Positions 10,597 to 58,060 of a stretch of 64,000 bases of DNA are shown piece by piece. The first letter of the stretch is position 1. Every line of letters begins with the position of its first letter. The DNA lies in assembly GCA_017561935.1 (NCBI GenBank), contig JAFZBE010000067.1, positions 2,752-66,751 of the forward strand, read 5' to 3'. Position numbers and translations under genes: made by a program. The notes under the pieces are model-generated. The model ran no database searches and was not told where the DNA came from. It saw only the letters and a program-made list of their open reading frames with translations. This stretch comes from Bacteroidales bacterium (GTDB lineage: Bacteria > Bacteroidota > Bacteroidia > Bacteroidales > UBA3663).

Positions 10597-13572
10597 ATGA
10601 ACATTTCTAAATTGCACCAGCTGGCGCGCAGTCTGCTCCTCATTTGCTTCATCCTGCTGGGATGGAGCGGATGTGTTGTGTCGTATGCCATTACCATCAC
10701 CGGACGCGTAGCTTCGGCAACCGACGACACACCACTGGCCGGCACCACCATCCGTCTTATGACTCTCCCCGACTCGACCTTCGTTGTCGGCACATTTACT
10801 GACCGCAACGGCAACTTCACTCTTCATTCTTCACGACTGGATGGTTTGCTCAAGGAACGCAAGGCGCATCAAAAGGTGCTCGTGCATTTCACGTACATAG
10901 GTTTCCAAGAAACCCTAAAGGTATTTACGCTACATCACCGGCAGAAGTCGTTCGCGCTCGGCGACGTGTTTATGCAGGAAGAACATCGCCTGTTGGGTGA
11001 GACCGTCGTCTCGGCCACCCCTCCCCCAATGGTGATTCGCGAGGACACTATCGAATACTACGCCAGCAGCTACCAACTTGAGCCCGATGCTACGGCCGAA
11101 GACCTCTTGAAACGACTGGCAGGCATCGAAGTGGATGCCAACGGAAGCATTACAGCCCAGGGCGAGACGGTGACGAAAGTATATGTGGATGGGAAGGAAT
11201 TCTTCAGTTCGAATATCCAGGCCACGACCAAGAACCTCACCGCCGACATGTTCGAGTCGGTGCAGGTGGTGGACATGAAGACCGAGGAGAGCCGTCTCAC
11301 AGGTATCGACAACGGCGAACGCGAGAAGGTGATCAACTTCAAGCTGAAGCCGAGGATGAGGCGCGGATATTTCGGCAACGCTGCCGGTGCATGGGGTGAC
11401 GGCTCGGGCATTGACGACCGTTTCGAAACGAAAGGCATGGCGGGCTACTTCAGAGGCAACAACCAGAATGCACTGGTGGCAAATGCGAACAATACGAACA
11501 ACACGGGCTTCGGCGACTTGGGCGAAAAGGTCATGCGCAACTCGACCATGCGCGGCAACCGAAACAGCGGACGACGCGGTGAAGGTCTGAACACCTCGTG
11601 GAGCATGGGCCTGAACCTTAATTACGACAAGGGTAACCGACTGCGCGACGAGAACACTCCCTTCGCCATCGGCGGCGATGTGCTCTATGGCGGGGAGAAA
11701 CAGAGCGAGAAGACATCGACGCACCGCATCAACTATCTGAAGTCGGGCAACACCGGCACCGACACGGAGCAGACAGGCGACAACAAGGGACAGAACGTCC
11801 AACTCGACTTCAAGTACGAAAAGACCTGGGGCAAGGTAGCCGATGGAGAACATCGCCTGCAAATTAGCCCGGAACTGGCTTTCAACAGATCGGAAACCGA
11901 TGAACATTCGACCAGCAGGAACTACCACCTGGATCCGAATGCGGAGGATGAGATCACGGCACTGCCTTCGACCTACATCAGCCAGACCCAACGCTCGAGC
12001 AACATAAAGCAGCAGGGCTTGAGCTATGAACTCGGTCTCACCTACTCTTACGCCAAGAAGATCTCACGAGGGCGACGACGCAGCAGCATCCGTGTCAGCC
12101 TGAATGGACGACACAATGACGGAGACCACTACACCCAATCGTTCACTAGTTACGACAATCTGCTCGTCAACGACCTGAGTCTCCTGAACGACACCACCAT
12201 CAACCAATGGCAGGAAGAACGTTCGAACTCCCTCACCTATCGCATTCGACTTACCCATGTGGAACCCATCAACGAACATCAGTTCATCGAAGTGGGTGCA
12301 ACGGGCAGTTTCACACGCAACACCCAACGCCAGCTCTACCACTTCTGGGACGAAGGTCTCGGACAATATGCCGACTCGATAAACGGCAGGTCGAACATCG
12401 ACTACAGCACCGATTCGCGTACACAGCAAAACAGCTACACCCTGTCGGCCAGCTATCGCCACGTCACAGAGCGTGTCAATAGCTCGATAGGCATTGACCT
12501 GCTGCCCAACACACAGAACTATACCGACTACTACGACCACTCTCGCGATTACAAACGTTCTTACATGAACTTTGCGCCACGGGTGGAGTACCGCTACAAC
12601 TGGAACCGTAGGAAGAACCTGCGCATCACACTGAACGGCAGGACGACACAACCTTCAATCAACCAACTGCAGGCACGCAAGAACCAGACGTCGGCCACCC
12701 ATGTCACATTGGGCAACCAAGACCTTGGGCCGGCTTTCCAAACCAACTTCCAGGCACGCTTCCGTGCCAACAGCCAAGAGACGGGACGTACGCTGGAGGC
12801 TTCGATCAACGCTACTGCACAGTTCAATACCCTGGCCACCAAACGCTGGTACAGCGCCGACCTCCGGACTGACACGACGATGACAGTTAACATCGACGGA
12901 CTGGGTTCGTGGAACGTGCAAAGCGAATTCAGGGGGTCGTTCCCCTTTGCCGACAACCAATGGTATGTAACCACACAGACGACACTGGGCTACCGCGAGA
13001 ACATCGGTTATGCAAACCTGAAGAGCACCGATACACAGGTGAACCATATACACAACGTTACGGCAGACGAACGAACGGGTATCGCCTACCGTAACGACTG
13101 GCTCAACGTGGAGCTACATGGACATTACAGTCTCTCATATAGCGAGGCGACAATCGTCACCTCGGGAAGTTTGGGTACTACACACCAGTTCGGCGTGCGA
13201 AGCAACTTATCAGCCCGTCTGCCGTGGAACCTGAGTTGTTCGACAAGCATCGACTACACGGGACGACGCGGCTATTCGGCTGGCTTGACGCGCAACCAAA
13301 CCATCTGGAACGCACAACTCTCACGTTCGTTCCTGAAACGCAAGAACCTTTCGGCCTTCGTGAAGGTGTTCGACATCCTGCATCAGAAGACAAGCATCAG
13401 GCGCAGCATCAGTGCCACGTCAATCACCGACCGCGAGAGCACAACACTCAGACAATATTTCCTGCTGGGATGCAGTATGAAGTTTAATCAGGGTGCGAGG
13501 GGTTTGAGGGGTTCGAGGGGTTTGAAGGGTTCGAGAGGTCCGAAGGGTTCAAGGGAACACGAACAACATTGA
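10597..13572 (+). CDS. Outer-membrane beta-barrel protein with carboxypeptidase-regulatory-like N-domain (TonB-dependent-receptor-like, OMP_b-brl_3 type) carrying a repeat-derived C-terminal tail
   Basis: 991 aa. N-terminal ITITGRVASATDDTPLAGTTIRL Cna/CarboxypepD_reg-like domain. Plug-like ETVVSATPPP...VYVDGKEFF. Long Asn/Tyr/Thr-rich barrel. A barrel-type end ...LLGCSMKF is followed by 28 extra residues, NQGARGLRGSRGLKGSRGPKGSREHEQH. Confidence 0.85.
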   Translation: MNISKLHQLARSLLLICFILLGWSGCVVSYAITITGRVASATDDTPLAGTTIRLMTLPDSTFVVGTFTDRNGNFTLHSSRLDGLLKERKAHQKVLVHFTYIGFQETLKVFTLHHRQKSFALGDVFMQEEHRLLGETVVSATPPPMVIREDTIEYYASSYQLEPDATAEDLLKRLAGIEVDANGSITAQGETVTKVYVDGKEFFSSNIQATTKNLTADMFESVQVVDMKTEESRLTGIDNGEREKVINFKLKPRMRRGYFGNAAGAWGDGSGIDDRFETKGMAGYFRGNNQNALVANANNTNNTGFGDLGEKVMRNSTMRGNRNSGRRGEGLNTSWSMGLNLNYDKGNRLRDENTPFAIGGDVLYGGEKQSEKTSTHRINYLKSGNTGTDTEQTGDNKGQNVQLDFKYEKTWGKVADGEHRLQISPELAFNRSETDEHSTSRNYHLDPNAEDEITALPSTYISQTQRSSNIKQQGLSYELGLTYSYAKKISRGRRRSSIRVSLNGRHNDGDHYTQSFTSYDNLLVNDLSLLNDTTINQWQEERSNSLTYRIRLTHVEPINEHQFIEVGATGSFTRNTQRQLYHFWDEGLGQYADSINGRSNIDYSTDSRTQQNSYTLSASYRHVTERVNSSIGIDLLPNTQNYTDYYDHSRDYKRSYMNFAPRVEYRYNWNRRKNLRITLNGRTTQPSINQLQARKNQTSATHVTLGNQDLGPAFQTNFQARFRANSQETGRTLEASINATAQFNTLATKRWYSADLRTDTTMTVNIDGLGSWNVQSEFRGSFPFADNQWYVTTQTTLGYRENIGYANLKSTDTQVNHIHNVTADERTGIAYRNDWLNVELHGHYSLSYSEATIVTSGSLGTTHQFGVRSNLSARLPWNLSCSTSIDYTGRRGYSAGLTRNQTIWNAQLSRSFLKRKNLSAFVKVFDILHQKTSIRRSISATSITDRESTTLRQYFLLGCSMKFNQGARGLRGSRGLKGSRGPKGSREHEQH
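13492..13554 (+). repeat. 9-bp-period mini-array, locus A (7 units, GGTTYGARG family)
   Basis: Units: GGTGCGAGG GGTTTGAGG GGTTCGAGG GGTTTGAAG GGTTCGAGA GGTCCGAAG GGTTCAAGG. Translated as seven Gly-X-Y triplets at the 3' end of the OMP gene. Confidence 0.9.
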
Positions 13573-14316
13573 TTATTCCTCAAGAATCGAGACTTGCATG
13601 GTGATGTCCTCGACGGGACGATCACCAGGCTGTGTCTTGACAAGCTGAATTTTATCGACCACATCGAGACCTTCTTCGACTTCACCGAACACAGTGTAGT
13701 TCTGGTCGAGGAAGGGCGTACCACCCACCGTCGTATAGACCTCGCGCTGTGCAGGGCTGTACTTTGGCTCGCCTTGCTCCTTGGCCATGGCGTACGTCTT
13801 CTGCTGCAGTTCCTCCTGCAAAGCCATAAGACCTGCATTGTCGCGATTCTTGCGAAGCTCGATGATCCGGTTGCGATTCTCGACCACTAGGCCGTTGAAG
13901 ATATTCTGCAACTGCTGCTGAGCCATCTGTCGTTCGAGCTGGGTGAGTTTGCCTGCACTATAAACTTCGCCGGTGACGATATAGAACTGACTGCCACTGG
14001 AACGCTTTTCGGGATTGACTTCGTCGCCCTGACGGGCAGCGGCCAGAGCGCCCTTCTTGTGAATCAGATCCTTATTGAACTCAGCGGGGATGGTATAGTC
14101 GGGGCCACCCGCACCGAGATGGGCAGTTGGCGAGGCTCCACGAGAGTCTGGATCACCGCCCTGTACCATGAAATTCTTGATGACACGATGGAAAAGCGTG
14201 CCATCGTAATAGCCTTCCTTGGCCAACTTGAGAAAATTGTCACGATGAAGTGGCGTCTCGTCGTAGAGTCGTACGGTAATGACACCGAGACTGGTCTTGA
14301 TTAATACTTTTGCCAT
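13573..14316 (-). CDS. Cyclophilin-type peptidyl-prolyl cis-trans isomerase (with Bacteroidota-type helical insert)
   Basis: MAKVLIKTSLGVITVRLYDETPLHRDNFLKLAKEGYYDGTLFHRVIKNFMVQGGDP ... YTVFGEVEEGLDVVDKI. These are canonical cyclophilin motifs. Confidence 0.93.
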   Translation of the reverse strand: MAKVLIKTSLGVITVRLYDETPLHRDNFLKLAKEGYYDGTLFHRVIKNFMVQGGDPDSRGASPTAHLGAGGPDYTIPAEFNKDLIHKKGALAAARQGDEVNPEKRSSGSQFYIVTGEVYSAGKLTQLERQMAQQQLQNIFNGLVVENRNRIIELRKNRDNAGLMALQEELQQKTYAMAKEQGEPKYSPAQREVYTTVGGTPFLDQNYTVFGEVEEGLDVVDKIQLVKTQPGDRPVEDITMQVSILEE

Positions 14317-14493
14317 ATCAATTATAATTCATCAGTAAAGAAAAAAAGACGCGGAAAAACGGCTGCGCAAACCATTGCATTTGCTATAGTGAGATTACAA
14401 AATATGTTTTTTAGCATATTTTTTCAGCCAAAATAGGATGATTTACCCAAAATAATTTGGAGGATTGGCAGAAATCCCCTATCTTTGCATCGT

Positions 14494-14563
14494 GTTTTTC
14501 ATGGTATTAGATTTTAAGGTTAATGCAAAAGGGTCGTTGTGAAACGCCCCTTTCGCATTTTAA
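14494..14563 (+). ncRNA. Candidate small RNA (orphan promoter plus hairpin)
   Basis: TATCTTTG -7 box at 14480-14487 with TTTG about 21 nt upstream. There is no plus-strand ORF downstream. A 17-bp imperfect hairpin at 14522-14559 has a GTGA loop (AATGCAAAAGGGTCGTT / AACGCCCCTTTCGCATT), followed by TT. The hairpin could equally be only the purM terminator. Confidence 0.25.
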
Positions 14564-14569
14564 ATACTT

Positions 14570-15817
14570 TCACTCATATTCGAAGATTCCATTCTCGGTA
14601 TGGAGCGTGACCTTTGCACCCTCCTTTCGTTCCTCGACATGACCAATGATTTGCGCTTCGATGTTGAAGCTGTGTGCGATGTCAATCACCGTCTGGGCAT
14701 GCTCGGCGGGGAGATAAATCTCGAGACGATGTCCCATATTAAATACCTTATACATCTCGGACCAGTCGGTACCCGACTGCTCGTGAATGGTGCGGAACAA
14801 TGGAGGAATGGGGAAAAGATTGTCCTTGATGACATGCAAATCCTTTATGAAGTGGAGCACCTTGGTCTGTGCGCCGCCGGAACAATGAACCATGCCGTGG
14901 AGGGAGGAGGAGAGGTTTGAGGAGTTTGAAAGGTTCGAGGGGTTTGAGGGGTTTGAGGGGTTTGAAAGGTTCGAGAGGTTTGAGCGGAATACGTCAAGGA
15001 TCTTTTTGACAACAGGAGCATAGGTGCGAGTAGGGCTCAGAACAAGCCTGCCGGCATCAAGGGGGCTGCCTTCGACGGCATCGGTGAGTTTCAGCTGTCC
15101 ACTATAGACGAGTTCCTCGGGCACCGCATGATCGTATGACTCGGGATATTTCTGGGCCAAATACTTGCCAAAGACATCATGACGTGCTGAAGTCAAGCCA
15201 TTAGAACCCATCCCTCCGTTGTATTCTTTCTCGTAGGTGGCCTGTCCGTAGCTGGCAAGACCGACAATGACGTCGCCTGCTGCGATGTTGGCATTGTCGA
15301 TCACATCGCTGCGCTTCATACGACATGTAACCGTAGAATCGACGATGATGGTGCGTGCCAAATCACCGATATCGGCCGTCTCGCCACCTGTACCATACAC
15401 ACCTATGCCCATCTCACGCAGTTCGGCCATCAGTTCGTCGTTGCCATTGATGATGGCACTGATCACCTCACCCGGGATGAGCATCTTGTTGCGACCAATG
15501 GTTGACGAGACGAGGATGTTATCGACAGCACCTACGCAGATAAGGTCGTCGATATTCATGATGAGAGAATCCTGGGCGATGCCTTTCCAAACCGAGAGGT
15601 CGCCGGTTTCCTTCCAATACATATAGGCCAATGATGTCTTGGTACCTGCTCCATCAGCATGCATGATGTTGCAATACTCGGGATCTCCACCCAGAATATC
15701 GGGAATGATTTTGCAGAATGCCTGTGGATAGAGGCCCTTGTCGATGTTCTTGATGGCGTTGTGCACATCTTCCTTGCTGGCACTCACGCCGCGCATCATA
15801 TATCTTTGATCTGCCAT
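14570..15817 (-). CDS. purM: Phosphoribosylformylglycinamidine cyclo-ligase (AIR synthase, Bacteroidota long form) with an in-frame repeat insertion
   Basis: MADQRYMMRGVSASKEDVHNAIKNIDKGLYPQAFCKIIPDILGGDPEYCNIMHADGAGTK ... HGMVHCSGGAQTKVLHF. The conserved flanks are interrupted by a 27-aa tract, SNLSNLSNPSNPSNPSNLSNSSNLSSS. Confidence 0.92.
   Translation of the reverse strand: MADQRYMMRGVSASKEDVHNAIKNIDKGLYPQAFCKIIPDILGGDPEYCNIMHADGAGTKTSLAYMYWKETGDLSVWKGIAQDSLIMNIDDLICVGAVDNILVSSTIGRNKMLIPGEVISAIINGNDELMAELREMGIGVYGTGGETADIGDLARTIIVDSTVTCRMKRSDVIDNANIAAGDVIVGLASYGQATYEKEYNGGMGSNGLTSARHDVFGKYLAQKYPESYDHAVPEELVYSGQLKLTDAVEGSPLDAGRLVLSPTRTYAPVVKKILDVFRSNLSNLSNPSNPSNPSNLSNSSNLSSSLHGMVHCSGGAQTKVLHFIKDLHVIKDNLFPIPPLFRTIHEQSGTDWSEMYKVFNMGHRLEIYLPAEHAQTVIDIAHSFNIEAQIIGHVEERKEGAKVTLHTENGIFEYE
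14905..14985 (+). repeat. 9-bp-period mini-array, locus B (about 9 units) inside purM
   Basis: Units: GGTTTGAGG AGTTTGAAA GGTTCGAGG GGTTTGAGG GGTTTGAGG GGTTTGAAA GGTTCGAGA GGTTTGAGC, preceded by a degenerate GGAGGAGAG. The gene reads the C-rich strand, giving (S-N-L/P) repeats. Confidence 0.9.
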
Positions 15818-15839
15818 AAGAATTACATTTAAGCGGGTG

Positions 15840-15847
15840 CAAAGATA
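15840..15847 (-). promoter_or_regulatory. -7 promoter box TATCTTTG for purM
   Basis: Plus-strand CAAAGATA 23 nt upstream of ATG 15817. Confidence 0.6.
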
Positions 15848-15900
15848 GCAATAAAAATCGATGCTACCAAATTTTGTTGTCTATTTCTTACTATTTCCGT

Positions 15901-17484: not shown

Positions 17485-18896
17485 TATTTAAAAAGAAGAC
17501 GGAAGGCCTCATCGACACGGGAGACGGGCGACAGCTGGATGCGGAGGCTCTTTGTCTCGATGCTCTTGAGGGCGATATTGGGAATGAGGATACGTTCGAA
17601 GCCCAGCTTTTCGGCCTCGCGGATGCGTTGTTCGAGACGTGCCACGGGACGTATCTCGCCCGAGAGACCCACCTCACCTGTCATGCAGGTAAGCGCAGGG
17701 AGCGGCATATCAAGGTTGGACGAAAGAATAGCTGCCATCACAGCCAAATCCATGGCGGGGTCGGACACACGGAGACCGCCCGCGATGTTGAGAAAGACAT
17801 CCTTCTGCGCCAGCTTGAAGCCGACACGCTTCTCGAGGACGGCAAGCAACATGTTGAGACGTCGTTGGTCAAAACCCGTCGTGGAACGCATAGCCGTAGC
17901 ATAGACGCTGGTGCTGACAAGTGCCTGTGTCTCGATGAGGAAAGGACGCATACCTTCAATGGCTGCAGCAATAGCGACACCAGAGAGATCCTTGTGGTCG
18001 GTGTTGAGCAACAATTCGGAGGGGTTGGTGACCTGCCGCAACCCTGTGCCCAACATCTCGTAGATGCCCAACTCGGACGTCGAGCCGAAGCGGTTCTTGA
18101 TAGCACGCAGAATGCGGTACATGTAATGTTGGTCGCCCTCGAACTGCAGGACAGTATCGACGATATGCTCAAGAACTTTCGGCCCAGCCAATGACCCTTC
18201 CTTGGTGATATGACCAATGAGGATGACGGGCGTGCCCGACTCCTTGGCGAACTTGAGGATGCGAGCTGCACATTCACGCACCTGTCCAACACTGCCTGCA
18301 CTTGATTCAAGATCGTCGGTGGCAATCGTTTGGATGGAATCGATGACAAGGATATCTGGTTCCACGTTGGCCACATGGGTGAAGATCTCGTCAAGGTTGG
18401 TCTCGCAGGCGATGAAGACTTGGTCAATGTCGCCCGTGGCCAGGCGCGTGGCACGCAGCTTGAGCTGATAGGCCGACTCCTCGCCCGAACAATAGAGCAC
18501 CTTCTTGTCAGGGATGTTCATGACGGTCTGAAGGACGAGCGTCGATTTGCCGATGCCAGGATCGCCGCCCAACAGTACCATCGAACCAGGTACGAGACCA
18601 CCTCCTAACACACGGTTGAGTTCGTCATCATGCATGTCGATACGCTGTTCCTCGCGTGCCTCGATTTCGGAGAGCCGACGGGGACGTTCCTTCTGTCCAG
18701 GTAGTCCCAATGTGCCGCCATGACTCCATTGGACGCCACCGCCCTTGCGCGAAGCCTTGCCGATAGCACCCGTCTGCGCATCGACAATCTCCTCGACACA
18801 GGTACCCCACTCGCCGCACGACGGACACTTACCGAACCACTTGGGCTCGTCGTTGCCGCAGGCGCTGCAGAAATATGCTGTCTTTTTCTTTGCCAT
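17484..18896 (-). CDS. radA: DNA repair protein RadA/Sms
   Basis: N-terminal zinc ribbon YFCSACGNDEPKWFGKCPSCGEWGT. Walker A GGDPGIGKST. KNRFG motif. Lon-like C-terminal domain. Confidence 0.95.
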   Translation of the reverse strand: MAKKKTAYFCSACGNDEPKWFGKCPSCGEWGTCVEEIVDAQTGAIGKASRKGGGVQWSHGGTLGLPGQKERPRRLSEIEAREEQRIDMHDDELNRVLGGGLVPGSMVLLGGDPGIGKSTLVLQTVMNIPDKKVLYCSGEESAYQLKLRATRLATGDIDQVFIACETNLDEIFTHVANVEPDILVIDSIQTIATDDLESSAGSVGQVRECAARILKFAKESGTPVILIGHITKEGSLAGPKVLEHIVDTVLQFEGDQHYMYRILRAIKNRFGSTSELGIYEMLGTGLRQVTNPSELLLNTDHKDLSGVAIAAAIEGMRPFLIETQALVSTSVYATAMRSTTGFDQRRLNMLLAVLEKRVGFKLAQKDVFLNIAGGLRVSDPAMDLAVMAAILSSNLDMPLPALTCMTGEVGLSGEIRPVARLEQRIREAEKLGFERILIPNIALKSIETKSLRIQLSPVSRVDEAFRLLFK

Positions 18897-24358: not shown

Positions 24359-25885
24359 ATGAACGCAACATTGGTATTGGGCGTCATCGTCCTTTACTTC
24401 CTTATGGTTTTCGGTGTAAGTTGGTGGACCACGCGTCGGCGTGACCGCGACACCGAAACCTTCTATCGCGGCGACCGCAAGAGCCCCTGGTGGGTGGTAG
24501 CCATCGCTATGATTGGCACATCCATCTCGGGTGTGACCTACGTGAGTGTGCCCGGCATGGTTGAAGCAAAGCAGATGAGCTACATACAAATGGTCATCGG
24601 CTTTGTTTGTGGTTACTTTGCCGTGGCCTACATCCTGCTCCCCCTTTACTATCGCCTCGGACTCTCGAGCATATACGTGTATCTCGAGCAACGATACGGA
24701 CGGTTCGCCCACAAGACGGGAGCCTCGTTCTTCCTCTTGAGCAAGTATCTGGGTTGCGCCGTCAGGATGTATCTCACTGCTGTGGTTCTGCAACTCGTTC
24801 TCTTCGATCAATTAGGTGTTCCCTTTGGCCTCTCGGTAGCATGCATCATGCTCATCGTCTGGATCTACTCGTTCCGTGGTGGCGTAAAGACACTGGTATG
24901 GACCGACCTTCTGCAGACACTCTGCCTACTATCCGCCATGATAGGATTTGTGATTTGCATCAGTTCAGCGATGGGCCTTGACTTTTCAGGGCTGTATAGC
25001 ACCATCACCGAAAGTCCGATGTCAAGGGTATGGTTCTTCGATGATGCGAATGACACGCGCTACTTCTGGAAACAGTTCCTCGGCGGCATGTTCACCACCA
25101 TCGCCATGACAGGTCTTGACCAGGACATGATGCAGAAGAACCTTTCCTGTAAATCGTTGAAAGAAGCGCAGAAGAACATGGTCTCCTACGGCTTCGGTTT
25201 CCTTCCCGTCAACATCATCTTCCTCTCTCTAGGAATATTATTATATATGTACGCGCGAGAAGTGGGTGTCGATCGAACAGGTGACGAGCTCTTCCCCTAC
25301 CTTGCCACAGGCATCAATCCGACGACGGGCCAACCCTTCCTTCCGCTCATCGTGAGCGTGCTTTTCGTGTTAGGTCTAGTAGCAGCCGCTTTCTCGTCGG
25401 CGGGATCGGCGGTTACCGCTTTGACGACAGCCATCATGGTCGATTTTCTGCGTAAGACGCCCAGCGAGGAAGGTTTGAGGGGTTCGAAGGGTTCGAGAGG
25501 TTCGAAGGGTTTGAGGAGTTCGATAGAGGGCCAACGTTTCTGGGTTCACATCATCAATTCCATCATGATGGGATTCATGATCTACCTGTTCCATCTGCTG
25601 GCTTCCGGCTCAGTCATTAACGCAGTCTATGTGGTAGCATCCTATACATACGGCCCACTCATCGGCCTTTTCTTCTTCGGCATGTTCACGAAGTGCAAGG
25701 TGAAGGATGGATGGTGGATACCGGCCATCTGCATCGCCTCGCCGCTTCTCTGCTTTTTCCTCGATCAGCATTCAGAAGCATGGTTCAATGGATATAAGAT
25801 CGGCTATGAGATGCTGCTAATCAATGGTGCACTGACAGCCCTCGGACTCTTTCTCGCTTCTCTCCACTTCCGCAAGTGTAGTTAA
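24359..25885 (+). CDS. Sodium:solute symporter (SSF) family transporter with an in-frame repeat insertion
   Basis: About 13 hydrophobic helices. SSF-like N-terminus (FYRGDRKSPWWVVAIAMIGTSISGVTYVSVPG). The loop insertion EEGLRGSKGSRGSKGLRSSIEG is encoded by repeat locus C. Confidence 0.88.
   Translation: MNATLVLGVIVLYFLMVFGVSWWTTRRRDRDTETFYRGDRKSPWWVVAIAMIGTSISGVTYVSVPGMVEAKQMSYIQMVIGFVCGYFAVAYILLPLYYRLGLSSIYVYLEQRYGRFAHKTGASFFLLSKYLGCAVRMYLTAVVLQLVLFDQLGVPFGLSVACIMLIVWIYSFRGGVKTLVWTDLLQTLCLLSAMIGFVICISSAMGLDFSGLYSTITESPMSRVWFFDDANDTRYFWKQFLGGMFTTIAMTGLDQDMMQKNLSCKSLKEAQKNMVSYGFGFLPVNIIFLSLGILLYMYAREVGVDRTGDELFPYLATGINPTTGQPFLPLIVSVLFVLGLVAAAFSSAGSAVTALTTAIMVDFLRKTPSEEGLRGSKGSRGSKGLRSSIEGQRFWVHIINSIMMGFMIYLFHLLASGSVINAVYVVASYTYGPLIGLFFFGMFTKCKVKDGWWIPAICIASPLLCFFLDQHSEAWFNGYKIGYEMLLINGALTALGLFLASLHFRKCS
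25472..25525 (+). repeat. 9-bp-period mini-array, locus C (6 units) inside the symporter gene
   Basis: Units: GGTTTGAGG GGTTCGAAG GGTTCGAGA GGTTCGAAG GGTTTGAGG AGTTCGATA. Confidence 0.9.
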
Positions 25886-27228: not shown

Positions 27229-27282
27229 AGGGGGACCTCAATATTTTTTCTATTCGAAGAATAGGAATCGACCAAAAGATTG

Positions 27283-27316
27283 AAAAAAACCGGACCATCC
27301 CAAAAGATGATCCGGT
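27283..27316 (-). terminator. Intrinsic terminator of rpsP
   Basis: On the minus strand, ACCGGATCATC-ttttgg-GATGGTCCGGT is followed by TTTTTTT. Confidence 0.85.
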
Positions 27317-27336
27317 GTGCCTTTATCGAAACTCAA

Positions 27337-27882
27337 TTAAGCCTCGGTAGGGGCATCAGTGGCAGCGGCAGCCTCAACAGCAGCGGCAGCCTCAGCAGCA
27401 GCGGCAGCTGCCTTAGCAGCAGCCTCAGCCTTCTTGGCTGCCAATGCTTCAGCCTTGGCATTCTTCACTGCAACCTCAGCGTTGGCAATCTCCTTCTCCT
27501 TCTTGGCAGCTTCGGCTGCGAGACCAGAGATCTTAGTGGTGATCTTAGCCTCCTTGGCCTTCATCCAAGCGTCAAACTTGGCTTTTGCCTGCTCTTCGGT
27601 GAGAGCGCCCTTCTTCACACCACCATTGAGGTGCTTCATCAGAAGGACTCCCTTGTAGGAAAGAATACGACTAGCGGTGAGCGTGGGCTGTGCACCAGTC
27701 TCTACCCAATAAAGGGCGCGTTCGAAATTGAGTTGAATAGTAGCAGGGTTGGTGTTGGGATTGTAAGTACCGATCTTCTCAATATACTTACCATCACGTG
27801 GCGCTCTGCTATCTGCGACTACGATGCTATATACAGCGTAGTCCTTGTGACCATGTCGTGCAAGACGGATCTTTGTAGCCAT
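27337..27882 (-). CDS. rpsP: 30S ribosomal protein S16 with long Ala/Lys/Glu-rich C-terminal extension
   Basis: [67 protein letters not shown], followed by a low-complexity tail of about 95 aa. Confidence 0.95.
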
Positions 27883-27966
27883 TTCGCAAATTGAATTAAA
27901 GATGTTAATACTAATGCAATCCTTGTCGGGAGTGGTGACACGTCATGTTCCCCGGTTTTGCGGGCA

Positions 27967-51507: not shown

Positions 51508-51511
51508 TATT

Positions 51512-52849
51512 CTACTTCACAAACAGTTCCTGCACAGCCTCGATTTTCTCATTACGACATATCACTACCACTTGGTCGCCAGGCTGGATATGTGTCTGGC
51601 CTGTGACTGTCTGTCCCTGTCCGTTGCGTACCATGCCACCTATGGTGATACCCTTGGGCAGACGCAACTCCATCACCGGTTTCAGTGTGATCGACGAGTT
51701 GTTCTGGGCCGTGAGGTCCACCACCTCGGCATCAATCAGGCTGAAACACTTCGCATTCGTCTTGTCCGACTCCAGCAGAATCTGATAGATGGATGCTGCC
51801 GTGAGCGATTTCTTGTTGACAGTCGAACCGATATTGAGGTTTTGGGCCATGGTGACCTGCTCCACATCGCTCACTTCGACGATGCTCTTCCCCACGCCCA
51901 TCTTCTTGGCAGTCAGACAAGCCAGGATATTTGAATCTGAATCCGGACCGACAGCCACAAACGCATCGTGAACGTTAATATTCAGGTCGTTCAGTGTCTC
52001 GATGTAGTTCTTCATCCCTCTCACCACCTTCACGTTGGGCAGCTTGTCCATCACATGATTGGCATTGTCAGCATCATCTTCAATGAAGACCACGTCATAA
52101 TGCTTCTTCAAATAATAACAGAGCTGTATGCCCAGGCGATTACCACCCAAAATGATGATGCGGTGCAGGTCGCGCTCCTTCTTTCCGCAGGTAAAGCGCA
52201 CCACGTCGGCCTTTTGTGGCAAGGTGACGAAATACACCAGATCCTCGGCCTTGACGATGTCATTGCCGTTGGGAATGATCAGATCGACATCGCGCCTGAT
52301 GGCCGCCACATGGAACGAGTCGTGATGCATGCGTCCGATGTCCATGAGCTTCCTTCCCACAATGGGGGCACCTTCGCGCACCTTCACAGCCAGCAGAAGC
52401 AGGCAGCCATCGCAGAGCGAGATGCTCTGTCGCGCCCACGGACGGGCTATGGCATCGGCAATGAACTGACCTCCCAGCATCTCGGGATAGACAAGGTCGC
52501 TGATGCCGATGCGCTTGTAGAAGTCCGCCGAGTCGGTCTTCTGTGTCTCGTAATTGTCCACACGGGCCATCGTACGACGAGCACCCAGGTTCGCTGCGAG
52601 GATGCAAGAATGGATGTTCGTGCTCTCATCGGGCGTCACGGCAATGAACAGGTTACACTCGGGCACACCAGCTTCTTTCAGTGCATGGATGCTGGTGGGC
52701 TTGCCGACCATGGTCATCAGGTTCATGAACGTCAGCTGAGCGATGCGGTTCATATCCGAATCCATCAGCACGACGTCATGATTCTCCTTCGCCAATAGCT
52801 TGGCCAGATGTGTGCCCACTTCCTGGGCACCGGCGATAACTATCTTCAT
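51512..52849 (-). CDS. trkA: Trk system potassium uptake protein TrkA (two RCK domains)
   Basis: MKIVIAGAQEVGTHLAKLL and a second Rossmann segment IIILGGNRLGIQL. 445 aa. Confidence 0.92.
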   Translation of the reverse strand: MKIVIAGAQEVGTHLAKLLAKENHDVVLMDSDMNRIAQLTFMNLMTMVGKPTSIHALKEAGVPECNLFIAVTPDESTNIHSCILAANLGARRTMARVDNYETQKTDSADFYKRIGISDLVYPEMLGGQFIADAIARPWARQSISLCDGCLLLLAVKVREGAPIVGRKLMDIGRMHHDSFHVAAIRRDVDLIIPNGNDIVKAEDLVYFVTLPQKADVVRFTCGKKERDLHRIIILGGNRLGIQLCYYLKKHYDVVFIEDDADNANHVMDKLPNVKVVRGMKNYIETLNDLNINVHDAFVAVGPDSDSNILACLTAKKMGVGKSIVEVSDVEQVTMAQNLNIGSTVNKKSLTAASIYQILLESDKTNAKCFSLIDAEVVDLTAQNNSSITLKPVMELRLPKGITIGGMVRNGQGQTVTGQTHIQPGDQVVVICRNEKIEAVQELFVK

Positions 52850-52857
52850 TGCCCTAA

Positions 52858-52911
52858 TCTCTGATTTCTCTGAATTCTCCGATTACTTGGAGTTCTCCGA
52901 TTATTCCGAAT
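52858..52911 (+). repeat. 9-bp-period mini-array, locus F (diverged TCTCYGATT type, 6 units) in the dxs-trkA spacer
   Basis: Units: TCTCTGATT TCTCTGAAT TCTCCGATT ACTTGGAGT TCTCCGATT ATTCCGAAT. The array overlaps the dxs stop codon (52901-52903). Confidence 0.7.
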
Positions 52912-54814
52912 CTTCCTCCAAAACCTTCGCAATGCTCGAGGCATCAATGCCGCAGAGTCGATAGAGTTCGCTCACTGAGCCTTGTGAGATGAACTCGTCG
53001 GGAATGCCCAGGCAGCGGATCTTGCCTTCGTACCCCTGACGGTTGGCTTCCTCCAAAATGGCACTGCCGAAACCGCCAGCCAAAGCACCATCCTCGACGG
53101 TGACAACGCGCGTGTACCTATTAAATATTTGCGCGAGGAGTTCGGTGTCGAGTGGCTTGCAGAACACCATATCATAATGGGCCACGTCACGCTCTACTCT
53201 ATCAATGGCCTTGGCTACCTCGATGCCTATCGGGCCGAAGGAAAGCACAGCCGTGTTTCCGCTGCCTTCACGCAAGCAATAACCACGACCTATCTCCACA
53301 GCCTCAAGGACGTTCTTCCAGTTCGGGTTGCCATCGGCATCATTGCCGCAGATGCTGCCGCGCCCGCGAGGATATCGGATCATGAACGGACCATCAGCCA
53401 CATCCACAGCCGTCACCATCAGTCTGCGCAGCCAATGTTCATCAATGGGCGAGCACACCGTCATGCCAGGTATGGCGCGGAAATAGGGAATATCCAGTAC
53501 ACCGTGGTGCGTCGGTCCGTCGGCACCCACCAGTCCCGCCCTATCCAGGCAGAACACCACATGCAGATGCTGGAGCGACACATCGTTCACCACCTGGTCG
53601 ATGGCACGTTGCATGAAGGTCGAGTAGATGTTGCAGAACGGCAGCATGCCCTCCTTGGCCAGTCCGCCGCTGAAAGTCACGGCGTGTTCCTCGGCAATAC
53701 CCACGTCGAACGTGCGGTCGGGGAATCGATTCATCATATACGTCATCGAACAGCCTGTTGGCATGGCAGGTGTCACACCCACGATTCGCTCGTTCTTCTC
53801 GGCCAGTTCCACCAATGTCATGCCGAAGACGTCCTGGAACTTCGACGGCAGTCCCTCCGTATTCTCCTTGATGCGTTCACCCGTGGCAGGGTCAAACTTG
53901 CCTGGAGCGTGCCAGATGGTGGCTTGCTCTTCGGCCTGCTTGAAACCCTTGCCCTTGATGGTGCACACGTGCAGCATCTTCGGTCCACCCAGATCCTTGA
54001 TCTTGCGCAAAGTCTTTACGAGCGACACCACATTGTGGCCATCCACGGGTCCGAAGTATCGGATGTCGAGGCCCTCGAAGATGTTCTGTCGGCGAGAAAA
54101 GAGCGACTTTACGCTGTTGGCGAAGCGAATCAAGGCGCGACGCAGCCTATCGCTGATCAGGCCATGGCGTTTCAGCGCGTTATATGCCTTGTAGCGCAGC
54201 AGGTTATAGCGTTGGCTGGTAGTAATACGCGTCAAATAGTGGTAGAGGGCTCCCACATTCTGATCGATGGCCATCTGGTTGTCGTTGAGCAGGATGAGCA
54301 GATCGTTCGGATGCGAGGAGGCATTGTTCAAGCCCTCAAAAGCCATGCCTCCGCTGATCGAAGCGTCACCGATTACGGCCACCACCTTGCGCTTGCTGCC
54401 TTCCAGCTTATTGGCCACAGCCATACCCAAGGCTGCCGAGATGCTGTTCGAGGCATGACCCGTTGAGAACGTGTCGTACTCGCTCTCCTTTGGAGTGGGG
54501 AAGCCGCTCAATCCACCCAGCTGGCGCAGAGTATTGAACTTCTCGCGACGACCTGTTAGTATCTTGTGCGCGTAAGCCTGGTGACCCACATCCCACACTA
54601 ACCGGTCGTCGGGTGTGTCAAACACATAATGCAGCGCCACGATGATCTCGATGGCACCCAAGCTCGAAGCGAAGTGTCCCGGATGGACGCTCACCTGTTC
54701 GATGATGAACTGACGTAAAGCCTGACATACATCCGGCAACTGCTCAATCGGCAATTGGCGCAAGTCGGCTGGACTATCAATCCCATCCAGTATGTTCTTA
54801 TATTTCTCTTCCAA
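52901..54814 (-). CDS. dxs: 1-deoxy-D-xylulose-5-phosphate synthase
   Basis: [26 protein letters not shown] and [16 protein letters not shown]. The only start-like codon after the upstream in-frame stop is TTG at 54814. Confidence 0.93.
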
Positions 54815-54828
54815 AGTATATCAATTTT

Positions 54829-54891
54829 CTTAACCCCTCTTAACCTTTCGAACCCTTCGAACCTATCGAACTCTTCGAACCCCTCATCCTT
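54829..54891 (-). repeat. 9-bp-period mini-array, locus D (7 units; G-rich strand is the minus strand)
   Basis: Plus strand reads CTTAACCCC TCTTAACCT TTCGAACCC TTCGAACCT ATCGAACTC TTCGAACCC CTCATCCTT. It covers the last 16 codons and the stop of the wbqC-like gene and ends 15 nt before the dxs start. Confidence 0.9.
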
Positions 54892-55511
54892 TCAAGGATG
54901 AGTATGGCCTCGGGACCCATGTTGAATAGCAAATCTAAAATACTCACATCAGCCATAAACGTCTGACGTCCACCCACACAGGCAACCTGATAATATGGGG
55001 GCACTTGCATGTGACCGAAATGCAGCGAGGGGGCATCGCTTAGGAAGACACCGTTTGGCGCAACGCAATCGAGTGGTCCCATCCATTGTTCCGAATAGCG
55101 GACTTTCGGCGAAAAGCCTATTTCGTGGCAGATGTGCTGGCGCAACGCCTCATTCATTCCGAAGAGTGTACCATCATGACCGTGAAGAAATGTCTCGCGC
55201 AGATCGTCGATGTAGTATTCGTAGAAAGGCGAATTGCCATAGTACGTTGCCCATGAGTAGAGGTGTTGTCGCTGCCAGTCCCCGTGTTTGCTCAAACGCA
55301 CCTCACGGATAGGCATCTTCAGTTTGTTGCCTTTCTCGACGTTCACCGAGAGCGTCTGTGGACCCTGGTCGGTGGCTATCGTGCAGCGGGTACGGAGGGT
55401 CTGTTTCGTGTAGTGCTCGTTCGCCTCCAACACCACCTCGTCGGCCGCATAGAGTATGACGTAGTACGAGATGGGGGCCAGATAGGCAGTAGGTAGAACA
55501 ATCGGCGGCAT
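54840..55511 (-). CDS. WbqC-family protein with repeat-derived C-terminal tail
   Basis: Start set at ATG 55511 (MPPIVLPTAYLAPISYYVILYAADEVVLEANEHYTKQTLRTRCTIATDQGPQTLSVNVEKG), overlapping the lepB stop by 1 nt. The track's 352-aa ORF extends through lepB in another frame. The tail is MRGSKSSIGSKGSKG. Confidence 0.85.
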   Translation of the reverse strand: MPPIVLPTAYLAPISYYVILYAADEVVLEANEHYTKQTLRTRCTIATDQGPQTLSVNVEKGNKLKMPIREVRLSKHGDWQRQHLYSWATYYGNSPFYEYYIDDLRETFLHGHDGTLFGMNEALRQHICHEIGFSPKVRYSEQWMGPLDCVAPNGVFLSDAPSLHFGHMQVPPYYQVACVGGRQTFMADVSILDLLFNMGPEAILILERMRGSKSSIGSKGSKG

Positions 55512-56992
55512 CAGAGTCCCTTCACTTTCTTGAACCAGCGGTCCTTGCGCCATTCGCCCGTCTCCTGGTTGATCGAGAACCATACAAAGAGCGGAGTGCC
55601 CACGATATGGTCTTCGGGCACGAAGCCCCAGTAGCGCGAGTCGAGCGAGTTGTCGCGGTTGTCGCCCATCATCCAGTAGTAGTCGTAGCCAAAAGTGAAC
55701 TCCGAAGCCTCCTGTCCGTTGAGCTCGTACTTGTCCTTGCCGAGGCGTGTAAGCACGTTGCCCTGGCCGTCGCCTGTGGCCTGATTGGGCTCGTAGGCAG
55801 TGATGCAGCGACCATAGAGCTTCACGTTCTCGTCGGTGAGCTTGATGGTCTTGCCCTTCTGCGGAATCCAAAGCGGGCCAAAGTTCGAACCCGTCCAATC
55901 CGATAGTTCATCCTGCGGATACACCGAACCGGGAGTCTCCTGATATGGGCTGTCCTTGATCCACTCCACTTTGCCCGACTTCTCCAGTCGCTCCTTCGCC
56001 TCACTCGTCAGGTTAACAAAGTAGAGGGGAGCATAGCGTCCCGTGATGCTATCGGGACTGATCTCGTAATAATGATAGAACGAAACATCCTGAATCGGCT
56101 GTACATCAGGGCCTACCGAACCGTTGCTGCTGCCCTTGGTATAAATGCCCATCCGTTTCCACTCGCGTTCGGTAATGATGCCGCCCTTCGTCAACACCAC
56201 ATATCGATGCTGCAGGTACTGTGGATCCTTCAGCTCCTTGCCGTCGATCAGCACCTTGCGGTCGATGATCTGCAGCGTCTCGCCCGGCATTCCGATCAGA
56301 CGCTTCACATAGTTCTCGCGGCGATCGACAGGGCGGGTGACGATTTCTCCAAAGGTTTTTTTGTCGTTCCACACCTTGTCACGCCCGTACATGTTGCAGA
56401 GCGTGTAGTAATCAGGGTTCTCGCAATTCACACACACGGTGTCGCCATTCGGATAGTTGAACACCACGATGTCGTAGCGCTCCATCTTTGTCAGTCCTGG
56501 CATGCGCCTATAGTTCACCTGAGGATGGGTAATGTAGCTCTTGCCCAAACGTGTCGAGCCAATCGATACCGTATGCTGGAACAAGGGCAACGACAAGGGA
56601 GTCATCGGCACACGAGGTCCGTAGTGGTATTTCGAGACGAGCAGGTAATCGCCCGCCATCATTGTCTTCTCCAGCGAAGTGGTAGGAATCTGGAAGTTCT
56701 GGAAGAAGAAGTTCTGCAGCACCCACACAGCGGCTAGGGCGAAGACGATGGCATCGACCCATGACATCGTGCTGCGCAGGAATCCATTCTTAATGCTCTT
56801 GTACCAGTCCCATTTGATGAATCGAGTCCAATACACATCCACCACAAATGGGAGGACGAGGAAGGGCACGAACGAGTTCATCCACAGGGCAAAGAGCACA
56901 ATTGCAATAATGCCGACCACCAGCCACACCTTGTCGCTCCTGGTCATCTTGCGGCCGAAACCGCGTATTTCCTTTTCTGTATTTTCAGCCAT
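55511..56992 (-). CDS. lepB: Signal peptidase I (large Bacteroidota type)
   Basis: SLEKTMMAGDYLLVSKYHYG (Ser box), VKRLIGMPGE (Lys box) and GDNRDNSLDSRYWGFVPEDHIVG. Confidence 0.93.
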   Translation of the reverse strand: MAENTEKEIRGFGRKMTRSDKVWLVVGIIAIVLFALWMNSFVPFLVLPFVVDVYWTRFIKWDWYKSIKNGFLRSTMSWVDAIVFALAAVWVLQNFFFQNFQIPTTSLEKTMMAGDYLLVSKYHYGPRVPMTPLSLPLFQHTVSIGSTRLGKSYITHPQVNYRRMPGLTKMERYDIVVFNYPNGDTVCVNCENPDYYTLCNMYGRDKVWNDKKTFGEIVTRPVDRRENYVKRLIGMPGETLQIIDRKVLIDGKELKDPQYLQHRYVVLTKGGIITEREWKRMGIYTKGSSNGSVGPDVQPIQDVSFYHYYEISPDSITGRYAPLYFVNLTSEAKERLEKSGKVEWIKDSPYQETPGSVYPQDELSDWTGSNFGPLWIPQKGKTIKLTDENVKLYGRCITAYEPNQATGDGQGNVLTRLGKDKYELNGQEASEFTFGYDYYWMMGDNRDNSLDSRYWGFVPEDHIVGTPLFVWFSINQETGEWRKDRWFKKVKGL

Positions 56993-56995
56993 AAA

Positions 56996-57784
56996 TTAAA
57001 ATCTCATCAAATCGGTCATCGTGAACACACCCTTCTTGCCATCGCTCATCCATTCGGCGGCAACCACCGCACCGAGGGCGAAACCGCGACGTGACTTGGC
57101 CGAATGTGTCATCGTGATGGTATCCACGTCGCTGTCGTAGGTCACTGTATGGATGCCCGGCACTTCTCCGCGACGGAAGGCAATCACCTCCAGCTCGTCG
57201 TCGCGATGCGTCTTGAAGGTCGTGCCCACCTCGGCATTGCGGGCCACATCCACGCTCTGATCCTCATGCTGCCAGATGGCCGCCGTCTCTTTCCAAGTAC
57301 TCTTGCGATCGAGATTATCAGTGATGGCGTCGGCAATGGTGATGGCCGTGCCGCTTGGTGAATCGAGTTTATGGATATGGTGAGTCTCGCTCAGGGTGAC
57401 ATCATACTGGGGATAACTGTTCATGATGCGAGCCACAAACTTCTGCATGGCCACGAAGACATTCACACCAATCGAGAAATTCGAAGCCCAGAAGAGCGAA
57501 CCGTTCGCTTTCATAACCTCCTCCTTCACCTTTGGCAGTTCGTCATACCAACCCGTCGAGCCCACCACCACAGTGACACCCGCGTTGAGGCACTTGCGCA
57601 CGTTGGCAAGGCAGGTCTTCGGTGTAGTAAATTCAATAGCCACATCGGCCGAGCGGAAGGCTTCGCTTTCGAAGTCCTCCTGATTATTGATATCAATGGC
57701 ACAGACCACCTCGTGTCCACGTCCCTTCGCTATCTCTTCGATGATATGGCCCATCTTGCCATATCCTATCAATGCAATCTTCAT
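56996..57784 (-). CDS. dapB: 4-hydroxy-tetrahydrodipicolinate reductase
   Basis: MKIALIGYGKMGHIIEEIA; ...ETHHIHKLDSPSGTA... Confidence 0.92.
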   Translation of the reverse strand: MKIALIGYGKMGHIIEEIAKGRGHEVVCAIDINNQEDFESEAFRSADVAIEFTTPKTCLANVRKCLNAGVTVVVGSTGWYDELPKVKEEVMKANGSLFWASNFSIGVNVFVAMQKFVARIMNSYPQYDVTLSETHHIHKLDSPSGTAITIADAITDNLDRKSTWKETAAIWQHEDQSVDVARNAEVGTTFKTHRDDELEVIAFRRGEVPGIHTVTYDSDVDTITMTHSAKSRRGFALGAVVAAEWMSDGKKGVFTMTDLMRF

Positions 57785-57848
57785 ATTGTATCTTCCTACA
57801 CTAACAATTGTTTTAAATTAATTGTTAATTGACATCGTTATATCGGGG

Positions 57849-57856
57849 CAAATATA
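57849..57856 (-). promoter_or_regulatory. -7 promoter box TATATTTG for the dapB-lepB-wbqC run
   Basis: Plus-strand CAAATATA 65 nt upstream of ATG 57784. Confidence 0.5.
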
Positions 57857-57951
57857 CGCATTTTTTCTGACATTGAGCCTATAATTACCAAAAATTATTC
57901 TTATTTTGGTATTTTTTACCCATTTTGCTGTCCTATATCAGAGAAAATATT

Positions 57952-57959
57952 TATATTTG
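57952..57959 (+). promoter_or_regulatory. -7 promoter box TATATTTG for the DUF2851 gene
   Basis: About 104 nt upstream of ATG 58063. The predicted leader contains repeat locus E. Confidence 0.5.
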
Positions 57960-58020
57960 CACGCTATAATTGACATCTTTTTATCATATATAGTCCTAAG
58001 GTCTTGAGTTTTCTTACCCC

Positions 58021-58060
58021 CTCATAACCTCATAATCCAATAACCTCATAACCTCTTTCG
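58021..58060 (+). repeat. 8-bp-period mini-array, locus E (CTCATAAC type, about 5 units) in the DUF2851 leader
   Basis: Units: CTCATAAC CTCATAAT CCAATAAC CTCATAAC CTCTTTCG. The preceding edge TTTTCTTACCCCCTCATAACC matches the edge of locus D (TTTTCTTAACCCCTCTTAACC) at 19 of 21 positions. Confidence 0.75.

Follow-up and report, generated by a model that had tools for sequence, protein, structure and literature searches.

Arrays of the 9-bp unit GGTTYGARG in a Bacteroidales metagenome scaffold: a probable coding-compatible family of long simple sequence repeats copied between loci

How can one short DNA repeat come to lie in several genes of a single genome segment, two of them encoding conserved proteins, and persist there? 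The question is raised by a stretch of 64,000 nucleotides from a Bacteroidales bacterium (contig JAFZBE010000067.1, positions 2,752 to 66,751; a metagenome scaffold, called the window throughout), in which four short head-to-tail arrays of the 9-bp unit GGTTYGARG occupy the interior or the end of four genes. Arrays of this family show slippage-type length change, exist as presence/absence alleles within species, share sequence copied from locus to locus, and use frames and orientations that are not random. With a probability of roughly 0.6, we regard them as a slippage-prone, coding-compatible family of long simple sequence repeats (LSSR) that passes from locus to locus by copying and persists where it does no harm. 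Judged from the sequences compared here, arrays inside enzymes would probably act as variable, disordered peptide spacers and others as leaders whose length varies; nothing in the data calls for a dedicated function. The arrays, two further loci and the host genes are as follows.

13491..13555, plus strand: array A, seven GGTTYGARG units, the G-rich strand being sense
14905..14985, plus strand: array B, eight or nine units, G-rich on the plus strand
25472..25525, plus strand: array C, five units and the boundary unit AGTTCGATA, the G-rich strand being sense
54826..54891, minus strand: array D, G-rich on the minus strand, GGTTCGAAG-type units followed by two GGTTAAGAG edge units
58013..58060, minus strand: locus E, 8-bp unit, CTCATAAC on the plus strand, the C-rich strand being sense
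52858..52911, minus strand: locus F, 9-bp array of another family, between the dxs stop codon and the trkA start codon
10597..13572, plus strand: host of A, outer-membrane beta-barrel protein (OMP) with OMP_b-brl_3 and CarboxypepD_reg (Pfam)
14570..15817, minus strand: host of B, PurM-like AIR synthase-related protein with AIRS and AIRS_C (Pfam)
24359..25885, plus strand: host of C, sodium:solute symporter (SSF) family transporter
54840..55511, minus strand: host of D, WbqC-family protein, counted from the Met at MPPIVL

An earlier note, made from the letters of this DNA alone, had listed the four arrays, and they were recovered by Tandem Repeats Finder, whose spans can differ from the curated ones above, and by a pattern search. 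The program reported period-9 arrays at 13491-13555 (7.2 copies), 14910-14984 (8.3), 25472-25523 (5.8) and 54842-54882 (4.6), together with arrays at 52858-52902 (period 9, TCTCCGATT) and 58020-58055 (period 8); one unit type accounts for nearly all the period-9 arrays of the window. The two-unit pattern GGTTYGARGGGTTYGARG, allowing up to 3 mismatches, matched 22 times, always within loci A to D, against 0.47 matches expected from shuffles, and exact single units numbered 16 (2.2 expected), 13 of them within arrays. Since two independent assemblies from two samples (L001 and L002) carry identical arrays, an assembly accident is ruled out. The arrays also have an 18-bp periodicity and B, in addition, one of 36 bp (92% matches over 2.1 copies); these longer periods match at 83-92%, better than 9 bp, which points to growth by duplication of two- or four-unit blocks.

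Translations and Pfam bore out the host genes that had been proposed, with A as the tail of the OMP, B in the interior of the PurM-like protein, C in the interior of the SSF transporter and D as the tail of the WbqC-family protein. Array A forms the last 21 codons of the OMP_b-brl_3 open reading frame (ORF) and encodes the C-terminal tail GARGLRGSRGLKGSRGPKGSR. Array B is read from the minus strand in the (S-N-P/L) frame, giving SNLSNLSNPSNPSNPSNLSNSSN, and array C encodes GLRGSKGSRGSKGLRSSI in a variable loop of the transporter, where it reads GLRGSKGSRGSKGLR in the G-[S/L]-[R/K] frame. Array D provides the last 13 codons of the WbqC-family ORF, and its end lies ~12 nt upstream of the dxs start codon. 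Locus E stops 3 nt short of the ATG that starts a DUF2851 gene and is a probable relative of the family with an 8-bp variant unit; an edge reading TTTTCTTA(A/C)CCCCTC is common to E and D, and this shared edge, which had been noticed before, is real (TTTTCTTAACCCCTCTTAACCT against TTTTCTTACCCCCTCATAACCT, 20 of 22 positions by our reading). The WbqC-family gene shares 1 nt of its start codon with the stop codon of the ORF upstream of it (55511-56992; ATGA, 55509-55513), so that a mechanically listed ORF of 352 aa is an upstream extension and the real protein has about 223 aa.

Are the arrays related to one another, or did each arise by slippage where it stands? The earlier note had argued for relatedness from the odd unit AGTTCGATA. 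This unit is indeed present in both C and D; as evidence it is poor, since orthologues keep it as the boundary unit of C and it is a one-step variant that is common elsewhere. More weight attaches to a non-repetitive module, CCTTCGCTTCCCTCGGACGCGACCAACGGGAGCAACC, which sequence comparison across related rumen genomes located inside arrays in 15 or more gene contexts that are unrelated to one another. Its length of exactly 36 nt equals four unit lengths, and it is free of stop codons in all six frames by our translation. An identical non-repetitive segment, CTTCCCTCGGACGCGACCAACGGGAGCAACC, lies inside the arrays of PurM alleles (L122) and of a BadF-like ATPase gene (L104), and a metagenome scan with the 26-nt core of the module returned 32 stretches. 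These 32, with L104 and L122, make up the count of at least 15 contexts, all from rumen metagenomes.

L104 7400-7440, L122 4845-4885, and L123-L154: the 36-nt module

The contexts include PurM, the BadF-like ATPase, two sites in a GH78-like gene, GH2 genes, sensor-kinase linkers and AroQ, as well as lipoprotein signal peptides, Ser/Gly-rich C-terminal regions and 5' leaders. The module is always flanked by CYTCRAACC units and has one polarity relative to the arrays. Because a non-repeat sequence of this kind cannot arise convergently, array sequence moves between loci and between genomes; as read from these alignments, arrays at different loci are related by copying and not by independent slippage. 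The module is doubled in or beside the same array in five stretches, the two copies being adjacent in L149 and one or two units apart in L138, L139, L140 and L150, and L149 holds, in the same position, a second module of hairpin type (CCTTCGCTCCGAGCTCTGCTCGCGCGCCCCGAAGGAAGCAACC). At the module-bearing loci inspected we saw no inverted repeats, duplications or conserved target, and the flanks share no motif. A hairpin formed by the module is not significantly stable (z = -1.4), and the module is absent from the viral contigs scanned. The flanks of the PurM array resemble truncated modules.

That the family is dispersed well beyond the window, as the earlier note had anticipated, was seen in a scan of 185,579 species-representative genomes for three consecutive units, in which the matches listed comprise at least 114 loci. 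Among the matches listed, most come from rumen/gut Bacteroidales metagenome-assembled genomes (MAGs), from Saprospiraceae/Chitinophagales and from Acidobacteriota, with a few other taxa that include the cultured isolate Prevotella sp. P3-122, whose array is G-sense and lies between a stop codon and a terminator. Among these same matches, TTCGA and TTTGA units are mixed in the Bacteroidales MAGs, Saprospiraceae, Chitinophagales and Lentimicrobiaceae have TTTGA units only, and Acidobacteriota have TTCGA units only; several MAGs have 4-9 separate array-bearing contigs. We catalogued 120-123 arrays of 4-23 units each, with unit weights (%) of G89 G99 T96 T98 Y(T63/C36) G94 A98 R(A54/G42) G73/A23. 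The variant unit GGTTAAGAG, which forms the common edge of D and E, is met again at the edges of arrays in many genomes. The array pattern occurs in no more than 5 viral contigs and the 36-nt module in none of them, which makes a phage vector unlikely. In Saprospiraceae/Chitinophagales (L006, L014, L058, L062, L087) the arrays often abut a conserved small hairpin, CGGCGGGTTTAGCCGCCG, which suggests a REP-like element tied to arrays in these groups.

A comparison of orthologues shows how the arrays vary in place. PurM homologues of at least 86% identity have 384/389/390, 395, 398, 401, 404, 407 or 410 aa, the window protein having 415 aa, and all the length differences fall at one site, between ...VVKK.LD..R and HGMVHCSGG. 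This site is empty in L117 and L118 (...DSMRQE-IHGM) and filled in L119 and L120 (...DAFRSH[SNP...]LHGM). The two pairs have 95-97% DNA identity, which is species level, and their mismatches are confined to the insert; thus the inserts are not ancestral linkers, an outcome on which the earlier note had staked its case. The insert replaces about 15 nt, and no target-site duplication is found between filled and empty alleles. The flanks of the filled allele are common to the window and L121 at ~85% identity, which indicates that the insertion in PurM is old and has diversified since. In the alignment with the solved homologue 3mdo_A (389 aa), which forms two blocks, nothing corresponds to window residues 281-301. 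AlphaFold2 on the PurM-like protein (23-sequence alignment) gave a mean pLDDT of 38 and an unusable model, so the assignment to a loop rests on the alignments and the gap against 3mdo_A.

In the SSF transporter, homologues of at least 91% identity range from 487 to 517 aa in steps of 3 aa, with 0 to ~9 G-X-K/R triplets. At DNA level three species have 2, 5 and ~10 units ahead of the conserved boundary unit GGTTCGATAGA. The same loop is filled in another lineage by an 8-bp-unit variant, AACCTCAA, read as NLKTSKPQ, and in homologues of 90% identity or less it is an unrelated non-repeat loop. The predicted length polymorphism in multiples of 9 bp is therefore seen in the orthologue comparison. 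The two C-terminal tails behave differently. After the conserved ...KFNQ, OMP orthologues have differing, non-periodic Gly/Arg-rich tails; since such tails are encoded differently there, the basic tail of the host of A is not new. WbqC orthologues carry short unrelated tails after ...LDLLFNMGPE..L.LE, and the closest of them (89% identity) lacks the array tail and ends in RMRGAKV. In the window the OMP and PPIase genes are convergent with no spacer between them; the corresponding intergenic region of L118 and L119 holds other repeats, CTGCTTAGGGGGAGGACTGGCGGGTCAC (2-3 copies) and CCCCTCGATCC-type units.

What allows the repeat to stay in genes? A unit length divisible by three, together with frames that almost all lack stop codons, makes the repeat compatible with coding sequence; as had been claimed, GTT-TGA-RGG alone is closed, and this for TTTGA units only. 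Over the whole catalogue both strands and all six frames of the unit are in use. Of the 69 Bacteroidales arrays, 30 fall within long ORFs, which upholds the claim of tolerance and repeated occupation of coding sequence, and here the frames are far from random. Of 22 interior arrays with the C-rich strand as sense (C-sense), 16 read SNP, 5 P-Q/R-T and 1 L-K/E-P, and all eight with the G-rich strand as sense (G-sense) read G-[S/L]-[R/K], in line with the single frame that had been proposed for this strand. The hosts include a GH2 beta-galactosidase (22 units, 66 residues), GH78-like and GH31 enzymes, a hybrid sensor kinase and the BadF-like ATPase, in which loops or linkers hold the arrays. Translation of the module gives PSDATNGSN in about 30 of 38 cases and, in signal-peptide n-regions, the Arg-rich PRTRPTGAT.

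Outside coding sequence, placement follows the neighbouring genes. In the 40 nt upstream of ATGs with which long ORFs begin, C-sense arrays outnumber G-sense arrays by 36 to 8 (all groups). An analysis of the longest flanking ORFs counted 27 C-sense against 13 G-sense arrays among co-directional intergenic ones, and 15 arrays between convergent against 6 between divergent genes. The C-rich strands have essentially no predicted secondary structure. A canonical G-quadruplex motif (at least four tracts of at least three G, loops of 1-7 nt) was found in 52 of 120 arrays (43%) and in the window in A only, not in B, C or D. On these counts a universal G-quadruplex property was rejected. So was a hairpin or palindromic nature of the arrays: DNA folding gave dG of 0 to -3.9 kcal/mol for A and B and only small TTCGAA mini-hairpins for C and D.

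The same placement rules settle another point. The earlier note had seen copies that are G-rich on the plus strand in the window's first part and C-rich copies in the last; the pattern is as described, yet with five elements it is not significant, since about 10 of 32 random strings have at most one switch. Arrays A and D are G-sense 3' tails, E is a C-sense 5' leader, and B and C are interior, and these rules account for the orientation of all five loci, so that placement relative to genes explains the partition. As no extremum of the cumulative GC skew falls between 25 and 52 kb, the partition needs no explanation by replication; an orientation switch linked to replication finds no support on this ground and because orientation follows gene position in the five loci. 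In a GH78-like ORF of L090 (~1620-1800) a G-sense array (GLKGSS x5) is directly followed by a C-sense array (SQTPQT...) within one coding sequence, and from its sequence the inverted pair would form a long mRNA hairpin; similar head-to-head pairs lie between genes in L027, L095, L100 and L111.

Locus F had been taken for a diverged relative of the GGTTYGARG arrays, and this reading had to be given up. Its unit, AATCGGAGA / TCNGAGTAN on the minus strand, defines a second 9-bp family that is also dispersed in other Bacteroidales. It was found in L004, L032, L056, L088, L126 and L145 alongside GGTTYGARG, sometimes in the same genes and at the same sites. In the GH78-like gene it fills a site held by GGTTYGARG arrays in an orthologue. 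The shared sites indicate that these genomes harbour several short-unit repeat families and that permissive sites are colonised repeatedly.

As an LSSR family of this kind, GGTTYGARG would have the following history. Slippage during replication or unequal exchange lengthens and shortens the arrays by one, two or four units at a time, as the length ladders and the longer periods show, and the shared 36-nt marker shows array sequence to be copied between loci and related genomes. The route is most likely ectopic recombination, gene conversion or template switching, with the arrays serving as short homology; a recombination-type route is assumed because no transposon hallmarks were seen. Selection would then remove harmful copies and leave three classes of survivors. 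The first would be spacers kept in frame within loops and linkers that permit them, the n-regions of signal peptides and C-terminal tails, where the frames appear benign, C-sense copies giving (S-N-P)n and G-sense copies G-[S/L]-[R/K]. The second would be 5' leaders directly upstream of start codons, with the unstructured C/A-rich strand as RNA, and the third the 3' ends of genes. Purifying selection against hydrophobic or stop-containing frames and against G-rich, Shine-Dalgarno (SD)-like or structured leaders could produce the frame and orientation biases.

Several points weigh against this explanation. The window itself lacks the 36-nt module, so that the relatedness of its four arrays is extrapolated from related genomes. 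The copying route is deduced, and the sole pair of empty and filled alleles, that of PurM, appears from its alignment to be an old deletion-insertion common to species at ~85% identity, in which the seeding step would be hidden. The occurrence of the same unit in Bacteroidota and Acidobacteriota, as it appears from a scan that had no control 9-mers, is not accounted for. Gene context was read from ORFs and not from curated annotation. The gene-side orientation bias and the 43% of arrays that are G-quadruplex-capable leave room for a cis-acting function.

Two other explanations keep some ground. In the first, the hairpin-capable 36-nt module with its flanking units would be a dedicated non-autonomous mobile element inserted in trans, with the arrays growing secondarily; the enzyme might, for example, be an HUH transposase of IS200/IS605-like or RAYT-like type or else a reverse transcriptase. 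The presence of a complex 36-nt sequence in so many unrelated contexts with fixed polarity speaks for such an element, as do its length of exactly four units without stop codons in six frames, the second hairpin-type module in the same position in L149, the PurM flanks that look like truncated modules, and an analogy with cyanobacterial small dispersed repeats, which reportedly lie in heptamer arrays. The inspected junctions, however, have no terminal inverted repeats, target-site duplication or conserved flanking target, the hairpin at z = -1.4 is not significantly stable, and viral contigs lack the module; moreover, the module always lies within arrays, whose homology alone could carry it. 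We hold this explanation to be unlikely, and we are equally doubtful of its wider form, in which arrays and module would represent an unrecognised, coding-compatible class of mobile DNA in Bacteroidota, possibly Acidobacteriota, actively inserted by a dedicated enzyme. The arrays would then be landing pads and homology arms for an element that is stop-free and a multiple of three in length. A related idea, that the arrays are stacked 9-bp target-site duplications of an IS4/Tn5-like element (the unit resembles the Tn5 target consensus GNTYWRANC), was dropped, since no IS remnants were seen near arrays and growth proceeds in 18-/36-bp blocks and not in single units.

In the second, the arrays would be functional cis-elements, such as G-quadruplexes, SD-like or anti-SD-like leaders, protein-binding sites or modulators of translation or termination, and the intragenic copies tolerated by-products; roles of this sort have been proposed for GGGNATC and TAACTGA repeats. 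The explanation is about as improbable in our view, although the placement biases given above (36 against 8 just upstream of start codons, 27 against 13 between co-directional genes, 15 convergent against 6 divergent) agree with it, and two earlier reports describe the same placement grammar for the G-rich heptamers of Xanthomonas/Nostoc (PMC4692102) and for TAACTGA (PMC4679880). The canonical quadruplex motif in 52 of 120 arrays and head-to-head arrays that form long hairpins or terminators (L003, L027, L095) point the same way. Yet the largest class in Bacteroidales is in-frame inside enzymes (PurM, AroQ, GH2, GH78, GH31), only A of the four window arrays is quadruplex-competent, and conspecifics differ freely in whether they have an array and in its copy number. 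The orientation bias is explained equally well if G-rich, SD-like or structured leaders are selected against.

Independent births of microsatellites in situ, in which slippage would have built each array out of a proto-repeat on the spot, loci would have exchanged nothing, and mutational or structural bias would have led them to the same unit, are very improbable. Slippage clearly operates, the ancestral SSF loop has AAGGTTATCGG where the boundary unit GGTTCGATA now sits and might thus have supplied a proto-unit, and an OMP orthologue tail contains GGTCGCGGAGGT; but a non-repeat sequence of 26-36 nt shared by unrelated genes cannot converge and contradicts this explanation, and the recurrence of the edge unit at array borders in many genomes, as at D and E, together with the predominance of one unit type in the window, adds to the difficulty. 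Adaptation at the protein level, with selected flexible or collagen-like linkers and DNA periodicity as by-product, could draw on the non-random frames, the Gly/Arg-rich tail of all OMP orthologues and the position of inserts in loops and linkers, but it is scarcely credible for a DNA unit that is used on both strands in six frames, also occupies 5' leaders and intergenic DNA, is missing entirely from some conspecific alleles and from the tail of the closest WbqC orthologue, and has no Pfam Collagen match.

Other repeats in the window belong to different subjects. A GCAGCN-rich stretch at 27357-27431, inside the ORF 27280-27894, has repeats of 6, 18 and 21 bp with matches up to 96% and is probably Ala/Gln/Ser-rich low-complexity coding sequence unrelated to the 9-bp family. 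Directly after the DUF2851 stop codon, nine tandem 42-bp units (GGAAACGTCCAATTTACGATTGAGAATTGGACRCRYGCGATY, 90% matches) occupy 59378-59754; each holds an 8-bp inverted repeat, GTCCAATT/AATTGGAC, and three units folded as RNA reach z = -8.7. This array has neither an Rfam nor a viral match, and as it contains no unique spacers it is not a CRISPR. Over the whole window Rfam found tRNA only.

A better knowledge of this family may matter beyond the window. If it is a coding-compatible LSSR family, one repeat would be a major source of in-frame protein length variation in abundant rumen/gut Bacteroidales, in proteins as diverse as PurM, AroQ, the SSF transporter, GH2/GH78/GH31 glycosidases and sensor kinases, and its colonisation of coding sequence would be unique among the described dispersed short-unit families owing to a unit length that is a multiple of three. 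Gene calling would be affected through spurious C-terminal tails and N-terminal extensions, as would orthologue clustering at fixed identity or coverage and structure prediction, and the arrays would provide natural strain-level length markers for metagenomic typing. With its 36-nt marker the family would be a tractable system for the seeding of loci by short repeats, for selection on reading frame, and for the question why G-rich repeats obey the same gene-side orientation rules in very different phyla. Were the arrays mobile DNA instead, rumen and gut bacteria would be continually supplied with hypervariable linkers in enzymes and surface proteins.

How do the arrays compare with systems already known? 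Some candidates fall away at once. A CRISPR array does not fit units that abut head to tail with no spacers, a contingency locus does not fit a 9-bp unit of which all observed length variants keep the frame, and a MITE (miniature inverted-repeat transposable element) or classical transposon does not fit PurM alleles and module flanks that have no terminal inverted repeats or target-site duplication. The collagen-like character ascribed to the Gly-X-Y triplets is superficial: there are only 5-7 of them, the four host proteins have no match to the bacterial collagen-like repeat (PF01391) at E <= 0.001, and the same DNA reads SNP on the other strand. For REP/REPIN elements, which combine an imperfect palindrome with a conserved 5' tetranucleotide and an associated RAYT gene, the observations were arrays with no palindrome and a weak module hairpin (z = -1.4). 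Rickettsia palindromic elements are reportedly palindromic single-copy insertions of 100-150 bp, in-frame in housekeeping genes. Like them, the arrays stand in-frame in conserved genes and are absent from orthologues (PurM, SSF); unlike their long hairpins, and as the earlier note had it, the arrays are non-palindromic on DNA folding, with a short period and variable length. The small dispersed repeats (SDR) of Nostoc, 21-27 nt long, are said to be hairpin-capable and to lie within short-period tandem arrays, and in this they would resemble the 36-nt module. They differ in sequence and phylum, and the module has four unit lengths, is stop-free in six frames and is mostly translated. The cyanobacterial STRR heptamers are reportedly a kind of LSSR.

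In Bacteroidota, the BrickBuilt MITE of Porphyromonas gingivalis is a dispersed element that carries a minisatellite and has inverted repeats (PMC4596501); the dispersed tandem repeat is the likeness, and an inverted-repeat shell was not seen here. The TAACTGA heptamer direct repeats of Beggiatoaceae, Cyanobacteria and some Bacteroidetes (MacGregor 2015, PMC4679880) lie a few nt upstream of start codons in one orientation and are likewise cross-phylum with no evident transfer mechanism. They have another unit, with stop codons in forward orientation, and are thus largely excluded from genes. The GGGNATC / GGGGAYT heptamers of Xanthomonas and Nostoc are G-quadruplex-forming (Rehm et al. 2015, PMC4692102). 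As a G-rich dispersed family of simple sequence repeats they share with GGTTYGARG that arrays are rare between divergent genes and that the G-rich strand, antisense in the ~50 bp upstream of ORFs, becomes sense directly after stop codons (PMC4692102). The excess of C-sense arrays upstream of genes, with A, D and the P3-122 array as G-sense 3' ends, reproduces this placement. The difference lies in the 9-bp unit, the high coding occupancy and a canonical quadruplex motif in only 43% of arrays.

The closest relatives are therefore LSSR, defined by units of 1-11 nt. GGTTYGARG forms head-to-tail arrays of a unit within this limit that are longer than chance, it shows whole-unit copy-number polymorphism among related genomes (PurM, SSF), and the same unit recurs at many loci, four of them in 64 kb. 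Short head-to-tail units, many dispersed arrays per genome, sporadic phylogeny and copy-number variation are also the features given for LSSR in PMC4679880, where, after Mrazek, Guo and Shah (2007), those with a unit length that is a multiple of three are the ones in coding regions. The earlier note did not recognise a described family. This stands for the repeat itself, whose DNA strings and encoded peptides had no relevant match in the literature searched, and not for its kind, since LSSR of 5-11-nt units such as TAACTGA (PMC4679880) and GGGNATC (PMC4692102) are already described. What is new relative to these precedents is the unit, the near-complete coding compatibility, the heavy in-frame occupancy of conserved enzymes, which in rumen Bacteroidales is the commonest position, and the non-repeat 36-nt marker that the arrays share.

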